Positions 10,655 to 58,240 of a DNA stretch of 64,000 bases are shown here, in pieces (positions within the stretch are counted from its first letter, which is position 1; each line of letters opens with the position of its first letter). This DNA comes from Escherichia coli (GTDB lineage Bacteria > Pseudomonadota > Gammaproteobacteria > Enterobacterales > Enterobacteriaceae): NCBI RefSeq assembly GCF_024298765.1, contig NZ_CP101210.1. One strand, written 5' to 3'. Below the pieces are notes generated by a model. It was given only the letters and a program-made list of their open reading frames with translations. It made no database searches and was not told the origin of the DNA. The translations under genes and the position numbers were made by a program.

Positions 10655-10689
10655 ATGGGTCCCTAAACACATCATTTTAGGTATTGAAT

Positions 10690-12219
10690 ATGAGACGGGC
10701 AATCAGCTACATCAGATTTTCAAGTGAACGACAACTAAAAGGGGACTCTGTACGCAGACAATCTAAGCTGGTCACTGACTGGCTTGATAAGAACCCTGAG
10801 TTTTACTTGGATTCATCCTTGAGCTTTAAAGATTTGGGGAAAAGTGCTTTTAGTGGTAAGCACTTGAAAGGTGGCTTAGGTGACTTTTTAACCGCTATCG
10901 AGAAAGGGCTTGTTAAAGCTGGTGATACACTACTAATCGAGAGTTTAGACCGTCTCTCACGTCAGGATATTGATATTGCTTCTGAGCTATTACGTCGTAT
11001 CTTAAGGGCTGGTGTAGATATAGTCACACTGAGCGATGGTGAACATTACACACGAGAAAGTTTAAAAGACCCGTTATCCCTGATTAAAAGCATTCTGATA
11101 ATGCAGCGGGCGCATGAGGAAAGTCTGAGGAAGTCTGAGCGTGTCCAAGCTGCATGGAACCGTAAAAAAGAACTCATCTCCGAAGGTATCAAGGTATCTA
11201 GGCGTTGTCCTGCATGGTTAAGGCTGAATGATGACCGTCGAACATTCACTATCATCCCCGATAAAGTGGAAGTTGTTAAACGAGCATTTGACCTGAGATT
11301 ACAGGGTTTAAGCTTTTGGGCTATCACCAGAACTTTAAACGATGAAGGCCACTTGTCATTGAATCAATACACACCTAAACAAAAGGGATGGTCTGATACT
11401 GCTGTAAAGAAACTACTCAGAAATCGTGCTGTGATTGGATGTTTCACACCTGCTGGACGTGAAGAAGTTCAGGGTTACTACCCCGCAATAATCAGTGAGT
11501 CACTATTCTATCGAGTACAGCAACTGAACACAGGGCAATATGGTAGGGCTTCTGTATCAAGTAATCCGCTATCAGTCAACTTGTTCAGGGGTATCATCAA
11601 ATGTTCTGAGTGTGGGGCTACTATTGTTCTTGGTGGATATGCCTTAAAACGTTTTGGGATGTACAGATGCCCTAATCGTTCAGCTAACAGGTGTAGTGCA
11701 AAGGCTATCAGTCGTAAGCAAACGGATACAACTATCCTTTACATGCTCGCATTATGCGACCGTTTTGAAACTGAAAATACTGACACTATTGATAGCCTTA
11801 AATTACAGCGTGAAGATTTGCAGCGTAAAATCTCAAAAATGGCAGAACTCGCTATTGAACTCGATGACATGACAATTATCACAGAGAAATTACGTGATAT
11901 GAAGAATGCGCTATCAAAACTCAATCATGATATCGAAGAGGAAACAAAGCGGATAAAGGCCATCACAACTGGAAGCCTCAAAGATATTGACAGGACAACA
12001 AAGGAAGGGATGATAGAGACACAGCTACTTATCAAGGGCGTACTCAAAGAAATAGTTATAGATGCCGCTAAACGTCGCTGTAAAGTGACTTTTCACAACG
12101 GTAAGGTAATTGACCTACCTATAACAGAAAACCCCTCAGAGGACGTTACAGAGGCCATACAGTCGCTTTCTGAAGTCACTGAGAGGGGTTTAATAGATGT
12201 TGATGTAGTAGCGATTTAG
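10690..12219 (+). CDS. Large serine recombinase (integrase-type)
   Basis: About 509 aa: N-terminal resolvase-type catalytic domain (AISYIRFSSERQ with the candidate Ser nucleophile; SLDRLSRQ), a Cys-rich zinc-ribbon-like segment (CSECGATIVLGG...YRCPNRSANRCS) and a C-terminal predicted coiled coil. ATG at 10690 preceded by AGGT. Confidence 0.8.
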   Translation: MRRAISYIRFSSERQLKGDSVRRQSKLVTDWLDKNPEFYLDSSLSFKDLGKSAFSGKHLKGGLGDFLTAIEKGLVKAGDTLLIESLDRLSRQDIDIASELLRRILRAGVDIVTLSDGEHYTRESLKDPLSLIKSILIMQRAHEESLRKSERVQAAWNRKKELISEGIKVSRRCPAWLRLNDDRRTFTIIPDKVEVVKRAFDLRLQGLSFWAITRTLNDEGHLSLNQYTPKQKGWSDTAVKKLLRNRAVIGCFTPAGREEVQGYYPAIISESLFYRVQQLNTGQYGRASVSSNPLSVNLFRGIIKCSECGATIVLGGYALKRFGMYRCPNRSANRCSAKAISRKQTDTTILYMLALCDRFETENTDTIDSLKLQREDLQRKISKMAELAIELDDMTIITEKLRDMKNALSKLNHDIEEETKRIKAITTGSLKDIDRTTKEGMIETQLLIKGVLKEIVIDAAKRRCKVTFHNGKVIDLPITENPSEDVTEAIQSLSEVTERGLIDVDVVAI

Positions 12220-12358
12220 TATCTCTTATTAGGATTCACTGAGTACTTTTTAAGCTTTGAAGCTACCCGACCAGCGTTACTGTTAGCATTGGTGAGGTTG
12301 GTTTTTTCAGCTTCTTCACAAAAAAGCTTCAGAGGTCTTCTTAACCATCCGCTAAGCA

Positions 12359-12402
12359 GGAGAGAGGGTGGTACATGAGAAAGAACCCTCACTTCTAAAA
12401 AG
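12359..12402 (+). repeat. Copy A of recurring element motif GAGAGAGGG-N-ACCCT-N-AAAAG
   Basis: ggagagagggtggtacatgagaaagaaccctcacttctaaaaag; contains the inverted repeat GAGGG...CCCTC; about 140 bp after the large recombinase stop. Confidence 0.5.
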
Positions 12403-12807
12403 ATTTTTTAGCTATTTTGCTTAAAACCATATCAAAAGATACATTTTATTGATTCAGGTCAAAGACAAAAGCATTGACAAAATGGTAAAATTGTTCACAT
12501 GACCTTACTTAACAGACTTTTTAAGAGCTTTTGAGAAGCTTGTTGAACAGACACTCTTTCTGGAGTGTTGTCTTTTACTTAAGAGGTTTGTTTAGATAAC
12601 TCTCAAGGCATCTCTTAAGAATCACTGTTAAGGTGATACTCTCCCTTCGGGTTATATCGTATCTCTTCTCCCGTTAGACAGTTTTTCCTAGCAACTTCAT
12701 AGTTATCTGTCAAGTGCCTTTGAAGATTCCATCAAGACCTCTGAATCTGACCTGATATAGATGCTGTGAAGGCATATTCTCTAGGTCTGTGTAGCTTACT
12801 TAGTGGG

Positions 12808-12853
12808 AAGAGAGGGATATAGTGACCATAGGGGAACCCCTCCTGTTAAAAAG
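12808..12853 (+). repeat. Copy B of the recurring element motif
   Basis: aagagagggatatagtgaccataggggaacccctcctgttaaaaag; same GAGGG...CCCTC arrangement, same orientation. Confidence 0.45.
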
Positions 12854-13356
12854 ACTACTTAGAAGTCTGAGACTTTAGTAAAATCTGTGAATATAGCTTC
12901 TCAGACGCTCTGTAACGCATTCTAAGCGATTTTACCACCTTATTTTAAGGTGGGTGGTACATCCCTATAGGTTACCCTAAAAATGGGGTTAAAACTCGCT
13001 ACAGAGCTTTCTATGAGGCTTGGTAGAGTTGCATAAATTTTACACAACACTTATTCAGCTTCTAAATTTTTTTATAAAAAATCGTAGTAACCCCTCTACA
13101 TTCCCCTTCACCGATAATCTTCAAAAATATCTATCACAGGTCTATACCTGCTAAGTACCCGTCACTACGCCTAAGTGGTCCCCTTTGCAAAATTTTAAAA
13201 TATCTATTGACTTTTTATGTGAACTGTTATAAAGACCGCTCCATCTCTTAGGCATACCGTTATAGCATACTAAAAAGGTATAGCTAACCCCCTGTAAAAA
13301 CCATACCGATTAGCCTTGTAAAACACTTTATCGGTACATTATACTCAACTCATCAA

Positions 13357-13926
13357 ATGAGTAAGGCAAATGAGTATATTATGGCTAACATTGGTTATAT
13401 CCGAGTTTCATCAATCCAGCAGATTACAGACCGTCAACTTGAAGGGGTCGTACTGGATAAGATATTTACTGATAAAGCATCTGGGAAGAATACAGACCGT
13501 CCACAACTAAAGGCTATGCTCGATTATGTTCGTGAAGGTGATGTTATCCATGTACACGACTTGTCACGTTTAGGGCGCTCTACCGTGGATGTATTAACGC
13601 TGGTGGATAAACTTTCACAGAAAGGTATCAAGGTTCACTTTCACAAAGAAGGTCTGATAACTGGTGACGATAACCCCACGTCTAAGATGATTCTCACAAT
13701 CTTTTCAGCAGTGGCTGAAGCTGAACGTAAAATGATGCTTGAGCGTCAACGAGAAGGCTATGAAGCTGCTAAAGCTGCTGGTCGTGTAGTTGGAAGGGGT
13801 AACGGTAAAGCGGTTGACAGAGAAGGTATTAAAGCTGCTCTTGCTGCTGGTGGTTCAATCGCTAAAGTAGCCGCTCAATTCAACGTTGCCAAGTCAACTG
13901 TACAGCGTATTAAAGCTGAAGATTAA
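13357..13926 (+). CDS. Small serine recombinase, resolvase/invertase type with C-terminal HTH
   Basis: 189 aa; GYIRVSSIQQ catalytic motif, IFTDKASG and LSRLGRS motifs typical of Tn3/gamma-delta-type resolvases, C-terminal HTH (IAKVAAQFNVAKSTVQRI). Alternative start ATG at 13381. Confidence 0.82.
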   Translation: MSKANEYIMANIGYIRVSSIQQITDRQLEGVVLDKIFTDKASGKNTDRPQLKAMLDYVREGDVIHVHDLSRLGRSTVDVLTLVDKLSQKGIKVHFHKEGLITGDDNPTSKMILTIFSAVAEAERKMMLERQREGYEAAKAAGRVVGRGNGKAVDREGIKAALAAGGSIAKVAAQFNVAKSTVQRIKAED

Positions 13927-13939
13927 GTCAGGAAATACA

Positions 13940-14623
13940 TTAGATTTTTCTTCCAAATAAACTTGGGAGATTCTTACGGTTTCTTGCTTGCATCATTATT
14001 TCTGGGCTAACAAGTTTTTTTAATTCGCTTCTGTACTCATCAATAGAACACTCATCCGCAACAAGTTTTGAAATCAGGTCTTCAATAGACATAACATCTT
14101 GTTGCAGGAAATCAAGTTCACGAGACAAGTGCTTTTTTTGATTCTCTAACTTTCCTATCTCAGCATTTAAGTTATCTACATCTGTCGCCAATTTCTCTGC
14201 CTGAGATTTCAAATTACTTGTATCTTCTTTTTCTCTTTCGATAAGGTTTTTTTGTTTCTCAATCTTCAACTTTGACGTCAGTCTAGCTGACTCTTCAAGA
14301 TTTTCAGCTTCTACTTTTTGTCTTGCTCGCCATGCGGTTGCCTTGATTTGAAGTAGTGTTACAAGGTTGCTGAAGTAAGGGAAAAAGGTCGCCAAAATGA
14401 ACCCTAGCCCTACGGGATAGCATAATGTTTTTAGATAGAAGTCTTCCGTCGATGTGATTTGTTGAATACGAGTAACAACCGAAGCCTCACTAAGACACAT
14501 GATAGCAATGCTTTTCCAGTTAAATCCCACCCATGACAAAATGATGTAGCCCCATAAAGGGTTAGCTACTCGTTCCTTCAACGCCTGCTTAACTGATTCC
14601 GTGATACTTTCTTCACTACTCAC
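13940..14623 (-). CDS. Hypothetical protein with two N-terminal hydrophobic segments and a C-terminal predicted coiled coil
   Basis: 227 aa ORF confined to the insertion; hydrophobic segments WGYIILSWVGFNW and PVGLGFILATFFPYF, then a K/E-rich heptad-like region; no family recognised. Confidence 0.6.
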   Translation of the reverse strand: MSSEESITESVKQALKERVANPLWGYIILSWVGFNWKSIAIMCLSEASVVTRIQQITSTEDFYLKTLCYPVGLGFILATFFPYFSNLVTLLQIKATAWRARQKVEAENLEESARLTSKLKIEKQKNLIEREKEDTSNLKSQAEKLATDVDNLNAEIGKLENQKKHLSRELDFLQQDVMSIEDLISKLVADECSIDEYRSELKKLVSPEIMMQARNRKNLPSLFGRKI

Positions 14624-14714
14624 AATTACTGCTCCATAGAAAACTCTGGTTTGAGAAATTTTAATGCGAATCCAATCAGTTAGATAGACCTGTAAATAGC
14701 AATTTTATAGAAGT

Positions 14715-14756
14715 CGAGAGAGGGATGACTAACACCCTGCATAGTTTCCTGAAAAG
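14715..14756 (+). repeat. Copy D of the recurring element motif
   Basis: cgagagagggatgactaacaccctgcatagtttcctgaaaag; same orientation; about 95 bp upstream of the minus-strand 227 aa gene start. Confidence 0.45.
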
Positions 14757-14954
14757 AGACTTCGCATATTATCTATATATTTCAATAAGTTATGCTAAAA
14801 AGGAACTATACCAATACTGCATAGATTCTGCGTAAAACTGCTTGGATACTTGGAAATCCACCATTAAATTGCATAGTCATTCACCTGATAAAGCCTGTTA
14901 TTAACAGGTGATAGGATTCGGATGTTCTCATAGTGTATTTAGGGAATTAATATC

Positions 14955-16001
14955 AGCATTACATTTTTATTTTCGGCCATCGCCTCACCGTTTTGGGGTG
15001 GACTCGCCGACCGTAAAGGCCGAAAACTCATGCTATTACGCTCTGCCCTCGGCATGGGCATCGTGATGGTGTTGATGGGACTGGCACAAAATATCTGGCA
15101 GTTTTTGATCCTGCGGGCGCTTCTTGGGTTACTTGGCGGATTTGTCCCCAACGCTAATGCTCTTATCGCCACACAAGTACCGCGTAATAAAAGCGGCTGG
15201 GCGCTGGGTACGCTCTCCACAGGCGGCGTTAGTGGTGCGTTGCTCGGCCCAATGGCTGGCGGCCTGCTCGCCGATAGCTACGGCTTACGTCCGGTATTCT
15301 TTATTACCGCCAGTGTGCTCATACTCTGCTTTTTCGTCACCCTGTTCTGCATCAGAGAAAAATTCCAGCCGGTCAGCAAAAAAGAGATGCTGCACATGCG
15401 GGAAGTGGTGACATCACTTAAAAACCCGAAACTGGTACTCAGCCTGTTTGTCACCACGTTAATCATCCAGGTGGCGACAGGCTCAATTGCCCCCATTCTG
15501 ACGCTGTATGTCCGCGAACTGGCGGGTAACGTCAGTAACGTCGCCTTTATCAGTGGCATGATCGCCTCGGTGCCAGGCGTGGCGGCTCTGCTAAGCGCAC
15601 CACGACTCGGCAAACTTGGCGATCGAATCGGACCCGAAAAGATCCTGATTACAGCGCTGATCTTTTCTGTACTGCTGTTGATCCCAATGTCTTACGTTCA
15701 GACGCCATTGCAACTTGGGATTTTACGTTTTTTGCTCGGTGCCGCCGATGGTGCACTACTCCCCGCCGTACAGACACTGTTGGTTTACAACTCGAGCAAC
15801 CAGATCGCCGGGCGTATCTTCAGCTATAACCAATCGTTTCGTGATATTGGCAACGTTACCGGACCATTGATGGGAGCAGCGATTTCAGCGAACTACGGTT
15901 TCAGAGCGGTATTTCTCGTCACCGCTGGCGTCGTGTTATTCAACGCAGTCTATTCATGGAACAGTCTACGTCGTCGTCGAATACCCCAGGTATCGAACTG
16001 A
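14955..16001 (+). pseudogene. mdtG: mdtG 3' fragment (C-terminal ~348 codons), separated from its 5' part by the insertion
   Basis: In frame from 14955: [43 protein letters not shown]... to ...[13 protein letters not shown], recognised as the remainder of MdtG; no start codon or RBS in native context. Confidence 0.85.
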
Positions 16002-57894: not shown

Positions 57895-58240
57895 GCCTGA
57901 TGCGACGCTTAACGCGTCTTATCAGGCCCACAAAAAGCACTGTTCCCGTAGGCCGGATAAGGCGTTCATGCCGCATCCGGCAACTGCGCCATAATGCCTG
58001 ATGCGACGCTTAACGCATCTTATCAGGCCCACAAAAAGCACTGTTCCCGTAGGCCGGATAAGGCGTTCTCGCCGCATCCGGCAACTGCGCCATAATGCCT
58101 GATGCGACGCTTAACGCATCTTATCAGGCCCACAAAAAGCACTGTTCCCGTAGGCCGGATAAGGCGTTCTCGCCGCATCCGGCAACTGCGCACTAATGCC
58201 TGATGCGACGCCTGCCGCGTCTTATCAGGCCTACAAACGG
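57895..58240. repeat. Tandem BIME/REP cluster (about 3.4 units of ~100 bp)
   Basis: tgcctgatgcgacgcttaacgc(g/a)tcttatcaggcccacaaaaagcactgttcccgtaggccggataaggcgtt...gccgcatccggcaactgcgccataa repeated head to tail from 57895, 57995, 58096 and 58197. Confidence 0.85.

Follow-up and report, generated by a model that had tools for sequence, protein, structure and literature searches.

A 4.3-kb AT-rich element interrupts, and has thereby inactivated, the gene mdtG in a 64,000-nucleotide stretch of Escherichia coli DNA from contig NZ_CP101210.1 (assembly GCF_024298765.1; hereafter the window, in which all positions are given unless another locus is named). mdtG is an efflux-pump gene of the mar/sox/rob regulon. 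It is well supported by the comparisons below that the element was placed in mdtG by its own large serine recombinase (LSR). The pattern of homology indicates that it is an internal-deletion derivative of a family of 11-13 kb elements and has lost the whole leftward operon (~8 kb). As to its lifestyle, we lean towards reading this LSR-placed, miniaturised family member as a satellite-like hitch-hiker of Felix O1-type phages.

Base-by-base alignment with mdtG of E. coli K-12 gives the interruption a length of 4,306 bp, from 10651 to 14956 or, equivalently, from 10647 to 14952. The K-12 match is lost after nucleotide 181 of the gene and is regained exactly at 14953/14957, from where it runs through the mdtG stop codon at 16001; the gene preceding the interrupted mdtG (start 10469) is lpxL. 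The junctions are fixed at a core, TCAG, common to both (10647-10650 and 14953-14956), and the bacterial attachment site (attB) in K-12 mdtG reads ...GTATTGTCTTCAG|CATTACATTTT. A first-pass annotation of the window, made without database searches, had described a split of mdtG by an insert of about 4.3 kb and AT-rich composition, and this is borne out: the insert has a G+C content (GC) of 39.8%, against 48.9% and 53.0% in the 5-kb flanks. Its boundaries (10655-14954) were two to four bases off the aligned junctions, although the in-frame resumption at 14955 stands; similarly, the frame does stop prematurely, not at 10654 after about 62 codons but at a TAA inside the element (10664-10666), which makes a 65-aa open reading frame (ORF).

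When the flanks are joined at TCAG, many E. coli genomes match the resulting 2,348 bp at 100% identity in a single unbroken alignment. The empty site is thus restored without a scar. The site is uninterrupted in 5,402 of 5,426 complete E. coli genomes. Since the joined flanks equal intact mdtG, there is neither a target duplication nor a scar, as expected of conservative site-specific recombination.

The LSR gene is oriented like mdtG and starts about 40 bp past the junction, just after the stop codon of the truncated MdtG'. Its product matches Pfam domains PF00239 Resolvase (7e-16), PF07508 Recombinase (2e-17) and PF13408 Zn_ribbon_recom (2e-6), has a coiled coil at residues 360-470, and matches the PHROG 95 integrase with E = 4e-80. 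The TCAG(T/C)AT junction repeat and imperfect inverted repeats noticed at the outset are real, the latter being GGTCCCTAAACAC at 10658-10670 and GTGTATTTAGGGA at 14933-14945, and together they give the attachment site of the element (attP). Reconstructed as ...GTGTATTTAGGGAATTAATATCAG|TATAATGGGTCCCTAAACAC..., attP has dyad symmetry in 15/22 positions around the core and a predicted junction TTTAGGGAATTAATATCAG|TATAATGGGTCCC. Resolvase and recombinase domains, zinc ribbon and coiled coil on the protein side, and short core, attP dyad and lack of target duplication on the DNA side, are the hallmarks by which LSR elements are recognised. The attachment (att) arms of mdtG-type elements and of relatives in the gene yecE, whose LSR is 70% identical in amino acids, have a common outer motif, GTGTATTTAG / CTAAATACAC, CTAAA(C/T)ACAC. 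We regard the insertion as LSR-mediated because the recombinase is canonical, the att structure is the expected one, the empty site is scarless, the 4.3-kb unit occurs in divergent backgrounds and the element is in no plasmid or phage record; the earlier proposal that a serine integrase had integrated a foreign AT-rich element is supported on each of these counts.

Compared with the LSR gene of a full-length element in strain A1, that of the window has 40 synonymous and 7 non-synonymous codon differences, which indicates that the recombinase is under purifying selection. No close LSR was found in the phage collection, where the best match, YbcK-like, is 37% identical over its full length. Once integrated, the LSR gene could draw its transcription from the promoter of mdtG, a member of the mar/sox/rob regulon, and in yecE-type elements the LSR is arranged likewise relative to yecE.

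Table 1. Features of the interrupted mdtG gene and of the element within it, in window coordinates
Feature	Position	Strand	Details
mdtG 5' fragment	10469..10650	+	codons 1-60 and part of codon 61; from K-12 comparison and ORF list
attL	10627..10675	+	...GTCTTCAG core TCAG 10647-10650, then attP right arm TATAATGGGTCCCTAAACAC
LSR (integrase)	10690..12219	+	509 aa, intact; catalytic motif YIRFSSERQ
Tube-initiator gene remnant	12216..12315	-	last ~33 codons; left edge of the ~8-kb internal deletion
Sigma-70-like promoter	12462..12491	+	AAGACA...TGGTAAAAT, overlapping TTGACA at 12474; points into the ORF-free region; from promoter scan
Candidate structured RNA	12494..12820	+	5' domain 12494-12665; long-range helix to ~12817
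Second copy of near-invariant ~130-nt leader	12864..13025	+	in full-length elements, leader lies upstream of a ~102-aa gene in the leftward operon
Ounavirinae-homologous block	13051..13249	+	AAAATATC twice, CCCCTTTGCAAAATTTTAAAATATC; ends with promoter-like TTGACT...TATAAA upstream of small recombinase gene
Small serine recombinase, resolvase/invertase type	13357..13926	+	189 aa; RefSeq start 13381
227-aa protein	13940..14623	-	two hydrophobic helices in conserved N-terminal ~95 aa; variable C-terminal coiled coil
Conserved family right end	14679..14942	+	palindrome CCTGTTATTAACAGG at 14894-14908; 77-90% identical in loci L001, L003, L005-L008
attR	14925..14976	+	attP left arm GTGTATTTAGGGAATTAATA; ...GTGTATTTAGGGAATTAATATCAG, core TCAG 14953-14956, then CATTACATTT
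mdtG 3' part	14957..16001	+	in frame from 14955 (AGC = Ser61, SITFLF...)

The 4.3-kb insert is found in mdtG of seven other strains, in several of which the LSR gene is itself interrupted by an insertion sequence (IS): ISEc52 in strains 104 and E166 and IS100 in E8. The LSR gene is intact in the carriers CT265, NT1F25, 1428 and APEC E12049. At the same mdtG site, and with the same ends, A1 and FDAARGOS_944 have elements of ~11.6 kb, and E110019 has a decaying copy truncated by IS3, which with a deletion interrupts its LSR gene (locus L091, 5551-7352). In these larger elements the genes follow the order LSR, 'phage baseplate protein' (a tube initiator), tape measure protein, small genes, a 325-aa helix-turn-helix (HTH) protein, Dam methylase and small recombinase. 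Relatives with the same order are found in yecE (YD786, SCU-387 and O157:H7 E32511), in the dinB-lafU interval (GB089), beside ymdF (02E060) and beside a YCII gene (Citrobacter and E. coli assemblies). Across these sites the LSRs are 29-70% identical to one another, and the family order can be given as LSR, tube initiator, tape measure, between six and nine small genes (among them HNH, either a 185-aa or a Rep-like HTH_36 protein and, in many members, Dam methylase), ORF-free region, often a small resolvase and a protein with two transmembrane (TM) segments, right end and attP. Relatives of the LSR gene are present in 340 of the 5,426 complete E. coli genomes and the tape-measure/tube-initiator module in 470 (~9%), always on the chromosome and in at most four copies per genome. 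At no fewer than five att sites, we find no relative larger than ~13 kb (IS aside) and no capsid, portal, terminase, sheath or lysis gene. Since there is neither a larger relative nor a virion gene set, the 11-13 kb unit is the element itself and not the stump of a prophage.

The origin of the short form can be read from where its homology to these relatives stops and restarts. Window positions 10300-12315 are 96.7% identical to the A1 element (locus L001, 20001-22016), through the LSR gene and the last ~100 bp of the 'baseplate' gene, after which homology ends. It resumes in the ORF-free region, where 12394-12851 is 89% identical to 02E060 and 12461-13214 is 77% identical to YD786, and 13056-14839, with the small recombinase and 227-aa genes, is 95.6% identical to GB089. 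A loss of ~8 kb from within the element is indicated because homology breaks inside the tube-initiator gene and resumes in the ORF-free region while both ends are kept.

The short form also appears to be mobile in its own right. In strain NT1F25 the element has 1 difference in 4,306 bp, whereas the 10-kb flanks are 98.4-98.7% identical to the window, and the nearest single-nucleotide polymorphisms (SNPs) in them, at 10612 and 15047, are only 39 and 91 bp away from the junctions. Strain 1428 has flanks 98.4-98.8% identical to the window and an element that is 99.7% identical. In APEC E12049 the flanks have 1 SNP in 20 kb, and the element has 15 differing sites, which are spread throughout and for the most part common to the strain 1428 allele. 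Site-specific acquisition of a 4.3-kb unit fits this pattern simply, whereas vertical descent with recombination in the flanks fits it poorly; by these comparisons the short form has entered at least two unrelated chromosomal backgrounds as a 4.3-kb unit.

The first-pass annotation did not recognise the insert as a known E. coli element. None of the plasmid and phage records carries it, and a full-text literature search, whose incomplete coverage leaves room for a prior description, returned no published account or name of the element or the family; it is, however, no orphan but belongs to a widespread family. It is phage-related, but it is no catalogued prophage remnant. The LSRs of the family may reportedly be listed in large-scale LSR mining studies. 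We considered and rejected the identity of the O157:H7 yecE element with SpLE2, which lies at sbcB / cobU-yeeB. The family reaches beyond E. coli, since the type strain of E. albertii, NBRC 107761, carries two copies of the family promoter and ORF-free region on different contigs (loci L062 and L063); Citrobacter freundii assemblies also have family members (loci L064-L068). Members often adjoin lambdoid prophages (SCU-387, locus L006, 1-19929; 02E060, locus L008, 1-5370), and in SCU-387 a tyrosine-integrase prophage uses the same yecE 5' fragment, resulting in tandem occupation of one attachment region.

Two lines of evidence connect the family with the Felix O1-type phages (Ounavirinae). The first is its pair of tail genes. 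The family tube initiator matches the gp018 tube initiator protein of PDB 9ndy with E = 2e-108, and its tape measure protein matches gp017 of the same entry with E = 5e-71; gp17 and gp18 are parts of the Felixounavirus baseplate hub in a study of Bas63 (PMC12609058). Phages and elements alike have this pair side by side and in the same order. The tube-initiator gene and its counterparts in Felix O1-like phages are 88% identical over 510 nt, nearly all of the best phage matches of the tape measure are ~82-90 kb Felix O1-like (Ounavirinae) myoviruses, and the IMG/VR relatives are phage genomes of ~87 kb. The GC of the element (39.8%) may be set beside the 39.0% reported for Felix O1 (PMC3185647). 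Within 10 kb on either side of gp18 in 26 Felix-like loci there is no detectable homologue of the other family proteins (71, 236, 102, 66, 92, 185 and 325 aa, HNH and Dam). The 236-aa protein has no Pfam, PDB, PHROG or NCBIfam match, and the 325-aa protein has a weak match to HTH_36 only, which is typical of replication initiators.

The second line is the ORF-free region, which is conserved across the family. The initial description of 1.1 kb without ORFs holds in that no ORF between 12220 and 13356 exceeds 58 aa, yet the region is the most informative part of the element, being homologous to a non-coding region of Felix O1-type phages. In a distant blastn search of 12220-14956 against 50,697 phage records, 13113-13204 matches an intergenic stretch of Ounavirinae; a 43-nt match (90.7%) to ~113-kb Salmonella phages was also obtained, with 17 further records beyond the matches listed. 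The alignment of elements and phages has as invariant positions AAAATATC (twice), CTGCT..GTA.CC and CCCCTTTGCAAAAT..TTAAAATATC. Each of 17 IMG/VR contigs has a single copy of the last motif, which the rest of that collection lacks; nearly all of the 17 are Felix-like genomes of ~84-90 kb, the rest being shorter contigs. Local blastn resolves two homologous blocks, A (E = 1e-11 to 1e-13) and B (E = 1e-6 to 1e-9), of which B comprises the promoter and first ~115 nt of some family members; both match only the 1.2-1.5 kb gene-poor region of the phages. In the phages themselves this region (Michonne, locus L072, 2300-3500; vB_EcoM_E9, locus L073, 2300-3113) is packed with YTTAACAR repeats and holds the once-per-genome CCCCTTTGCAAAAT.TTAAAATATC and a candidate structured RNA; our literature search found nothing on it. 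We rejected the idea that the motif marks a genome terminus as too weak, with 4 of ~33 records having it within 0.6 kb of the record end.

The promoter (Table 1) is invariant across the family, and its exact pattern is found only in Escherichia elements. It points at a candidate structured RNA, in the 5' domain of which there is a C(UUCG)G hairpin (~12633-12660) and, between 12508 and 12632, a run of five T(C/G)TTAA(C/G)A repeats. With RNAalifold, 11 elements give 53 pairs, with 95% of cells paired compared with 39-56% for slid partners, and a covariation score of 0.30 against ~0.10 in the slid control. A covariance model of the 5' domain finds a homologous domain in 14 Ounavirinae phage loci (E = 1e-4 to 0.02). 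In the joint alignment of 26 sequences, which come from few clades and were fitted to the model's own structure, 14 of 22 pairs have a compensatory change, and all five measures beat 500/500 shuffles, slid controls scoring 0.02-0.08. The outer helices overlap the T(C/G)TTAA(C/G)A repeats; these abound in the phage region and might be DNA sites to which a protein binds. The RNA would lie on the plus strand, since it has many G-U pairs, and this agrees with the direction of the promoter. An Rfam scan of 10400-15200 at E <= 1 gave nothing meaningful, its one match, to NRON (E = 0.06), being by chance. Taken together, these alignments suggest that the ORF-free region is a phage-homologous cis/RNA module with a candidate structured RNA. 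The ~130-nt leader (locus L005, 26485-26675 and equivalents) is almost invariant even between elements with a 30% difference in their LSRs. At its end is a Shine-Dalgarno sequence; a hairpin within it, with UAUUUUA as the loop, shows covariation, and both the window and YD786 have a further copy of the leader in the ORF-free region.

By its tail genes and its non-coding region the family has, on these comparisons, a specific relationship to Ounavirinae; this is a relationship, not dependence. Because both features are common to the family and to Felix O1-type lytic phages, the family, and with it the mini form, probably depends on such phages as helpers. The short form and eight full-length relatives have the features of satellites, being islands with an integrase and att sites of their own and no autonomous virion genes.

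We propose the following life cycle. The LSR would integrate the element by conservative recombination of attP with attB, the crossover falling inside the common TCAG in mdtG codons 60-61, which leaves the LSR gene downstream of the mdtG promoter. A single internal deletion of ~8 kb removed the whole leftward operon. The mini form keeps the LSR, attP and the right end, the resolvase and membrane-protein genes, and the ORF-free module with its promoter, candidate RNA and once-per-phage motif; in the circular form the right end would lie directly upstream of the LSR gene. Infection by a virulent member of the Ounavirinae may then supply an excision directionality factor, together with functions for replication and/or packaging that would use the phage-like region in cis. 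Phage particles would carry the element, and its LSR would integrate it into mdtG of the next cell. The resolvase might resolve multimers, the membrane protein could be an accessory for exclusion or defence, and the mini form would ride as a minimal or non-autonomous element. It is a possibility we hold tentatively, short of thinking it probable, that the family is an undescribed satellite class of the virulent Ounavirinae coliphages and salmonella phages, of which the 4.3-kb form is minimal and still transmissible.

Several observations weigh against this proposal, besides the two reservations on the RNA given above (the self-fitted alignment and the overlap with repeats). The 4.3-kb form has neither a replication gene nor a packaging gene, and inspection of its ORFs gave no candidate for a recombination directionality factor (RDF). 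The excised junction, searched as 36 nt of reconstructed attP, is not found in public metagenome or IMG/VR contigs, and no family members were seen in virome-derived particle contigs. The short form is rare (seven strains), and the copies with an IS in the LSR gene have probably been immobilised. One metagenome contig (locus L038) was considered as a packaged form and rejected, as it is a chromosomal fragment carrying a family member.

The main rival, which we judge unlikely but deserving of attention, is a decoy-type anti-phage defence island, in which variant tail proteins and phage-like RNA or DNA would poison tail assembly or titrate a phage factor. On this reading the mini form would be reduced to the decoy RNA/DNA plus the membrane protein, which would serve abortive infection or exclusion. 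Such an island would account for the same phage homology as the satellite proposal; the promoter, being strong and conserved, suggests that the RNA is made constitutively, the cargo of the right-end slot varies as it does in defence hotspots, and known satellites also defend their hosts. Yet PADLOC finds no known defence protein, only coiled-coil noise, and spread between lineages still needs a transfer route. The lifestyle of such an island is compatible with that of a satellite.

Improbable, in our view, is that the element is an inert decay remnant of a single integration, having lost 8 kb and been inherited vertically, its apparent mobility being an artefact of recombination in the flanks. 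The internal deletion is real, an RDF and a replication gene are lacking, attP is not found in public contigs, and the IS insertions in the LSR gene of some strains and the truncated copy in E110019 do look like decay. This reading is at odds with NT1F25, where SNPs come so close to both junctions and both 10-kb flanks are 1.3-1.6% divergent against a single difference across 4.3 kb, with the occurrence of two element alleles in one identical chromosomal background, and with purifying selection on the LSR.

We find it very hard to credit a remnant of an ordinary temperate prophage that integrated at mdtG. The terminal LSR, the tail genes of larger relatives and the provirus flags given to relatives by IMG/VR would suit it, but the lack of any larger or virion-gene-bearing relative at the att sites surveyed does not, and gene order is conserved across lineages with LSRs 34-70% identical. 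Nor does any phage record have a close LSR, and the homologous phages are virulent Ounavirinae. Weakest of all, and close to negligible, is the notion that the small serine recombinase is the active principle, either as a resolvase-borne cassette inserted into the element or as the driver of an invertible (phase-variable) switch controlling the 227-aa gene: three unrelated recombinases (34% identity) do occupy the same slot, one in the opposite orientation, but no convincing inverted or res-like repeats bound the gene, and its pairing with the TM-protein gene is stable in full-length elements.

The gene content reported in the first-pass annotation (an LSR, a resolvase-type recombinase, a 227-aa membrane/coiled-coil protein and 1.1 kb free of ORFs) is as described. 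Its statement that transposase, replication and phage structural genes are absent applies to the 4.3-kb form, whereas full-length relatives carry a tape measure and a tube initiator. The small recombinase has an N-terminal catalytic domain and a C-terminal HTH, matches PHROG 125 with E = 2e-58, and has as its nearest solved structures the Tn3 and gamma-delta resolvases (5e-31) and Gin (1.5e-23). A Tn3-family or resolvase transposon was nonetheless rejected, there being neither a transposase ORF nor a target duplication, and the att arms being the only matching terminal repeats. Among mdtG-type elements three small serine recombinases, mutually 34% identical, occur in one slot, one of them reversed (locus L001, 30973-31542; locus L003, 33528-34079; window, 13357-13926), and the yecE-type elements of loci L005 and L006 have none. 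An inversion in FDAARGOS_944 was rejected, the oppositely oriented recombinase being a different gene; because the differently oriented genes lack DNA similarity, the slot has undergone replacement, not inversion.

Homologues of the 227-aa protein are few and all enterobacterial. It is 99% identical in the GB089 element, and a homologue with 64% identity adjoins a small resolvase in a full-length element integrated elsewhere; as the pair recurs in full-length elements, recombinase and membrane protein form a family module and are not chance neighbours. Pfam and PADLOC (LmuB, JetC) return coiled-coil noise only for this protein, its PHROG matches are of unknown function, and the AlphaFold2 model is poor (pLDDT 66, pTM 0.29; a single long helix).

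The known system that the family most calls to mind is PLE of V. cholerae, likewise an LSR-integrated chromosomal island without capsid or terminase genes; a virulent myovirus is the presumed partner here, and full-length members have a Rep-like gene. In the PLE/ICP1 paradigm the phage supplies the excision factor (PexA). The family differs from PLE in its host (Escherichia/Citrobacter) and helper lineage, and in having tail-hub genes and a phage-homologous non-coding module. Among the annotations and the Pfam, PHROG and NCBIfam matches of the element's proteins there is no PLE gene, and membership of PLE was rejected; these matches do not include a direct comparison with PLE sequences. P4-like satellites resemble the family in size (~11 kb), in having a terminal integrase and variable cargo close to one end, and in regulation through RNA from a non-coding leader, which in P4 holds the CI RNA. 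The P4 tyrosine integrase, alpha primase, Sid/Psu capsid-size genes and cos are not found here, and the helper is of another type. PICMIs (phage-inducible chromosomal minimalist islands) of Vibrionaceae have a tyrosine integrase, AlpA and a primase-type replication module. This element has none of the three, but its mini form is like a PICMI in being very small and gene-poor, and PICMIs are thought (PMC10803314) to ride virulent phages without capsid-remodelling genes. Membership of the PICI, cfPICI or P4-like groups was rejected, as the integrase is a serine recombinase and Pfam, PHROG and NCBIfam scans give no domains of those groups, such as AlpA and pri-rep of PICIs or the capsid genes of cfPICIs.

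Integration itself is of the phiC31/Bxb1/TP901-1 type in domain architecture, imperfect attP dyad of ~40-50 bp, short core in which the crossover dinucleotide would lie, lack of target duplication and intragenic attB; the difference is that the cargo here is a non-viral element of 4.3 kb (or 11 kb) and not a complete phage. The YbcK-type LSRs of lambdoid coliphages, the closest phage-encoded relatives (37%), are accessory genes inside phage genomes of ~44-50 kb and not terminal integrases of small islands.

To our knowledge, most of the satellites described for virulent phages come from Vibrio (PLE, PICMI). We did not find tape measure and tube-initiator genes, or a helper non-coding locus, described for any satellite in the literature, our coverage of which is incomplete, and there is a substantial chance that the element points to a new satellite family. 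If the proposal is true, these would be the first satellites known with tape measure and tube-initiator genes of their own and a copy of the helper's structured RNA/cis locus, and the 4.3-kb form would define the smallest cis/trans set for riding a phage: integrase, attP and a helper-mimicking non-coding module. Felix O1-type phages are widely used in Salmonella typing, biocontrol and therapy, and a family that has their tail-hub genes and unique non-coding locus, and that is present in ~9% of complete E. coli genomes, would be likely to influence how effective these phages are, which hosts they infect and how they transfer genes. With an enterobacterial counterpart, a tractable host and the BASEL phages would make cis requirements, the purpose of a satellite tape measure and the role of the phage RNA/DNA locus testable. 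The mini element also offers a compact, naturally occurring LSR/attP/attB set whose E. coli target lies inside a gene.

Elsewhere in the window, in the interval 32614-36325, an IS3-family element and a DUF2726 gene are all that separates phoH from a tRNA-Ser gene (32614-32698) and the RtT RNA (32746-32882) downstream of which they lie; the same place in FDAARGOS_944 has ycdU and pgaBCD, genes that the annotation of the matching genome, CT265, lacks. Within the phoH coding region, 35719-35912 is a strong Rfam match (193 bits) to Ysr251, a Yersinia antisense small RNA. Three tandem copies of naRNA4 (CssrE, REP-type elements) with a period of 101 bp lie at 57951-58231, as matches at the Rfam gathering threshold.

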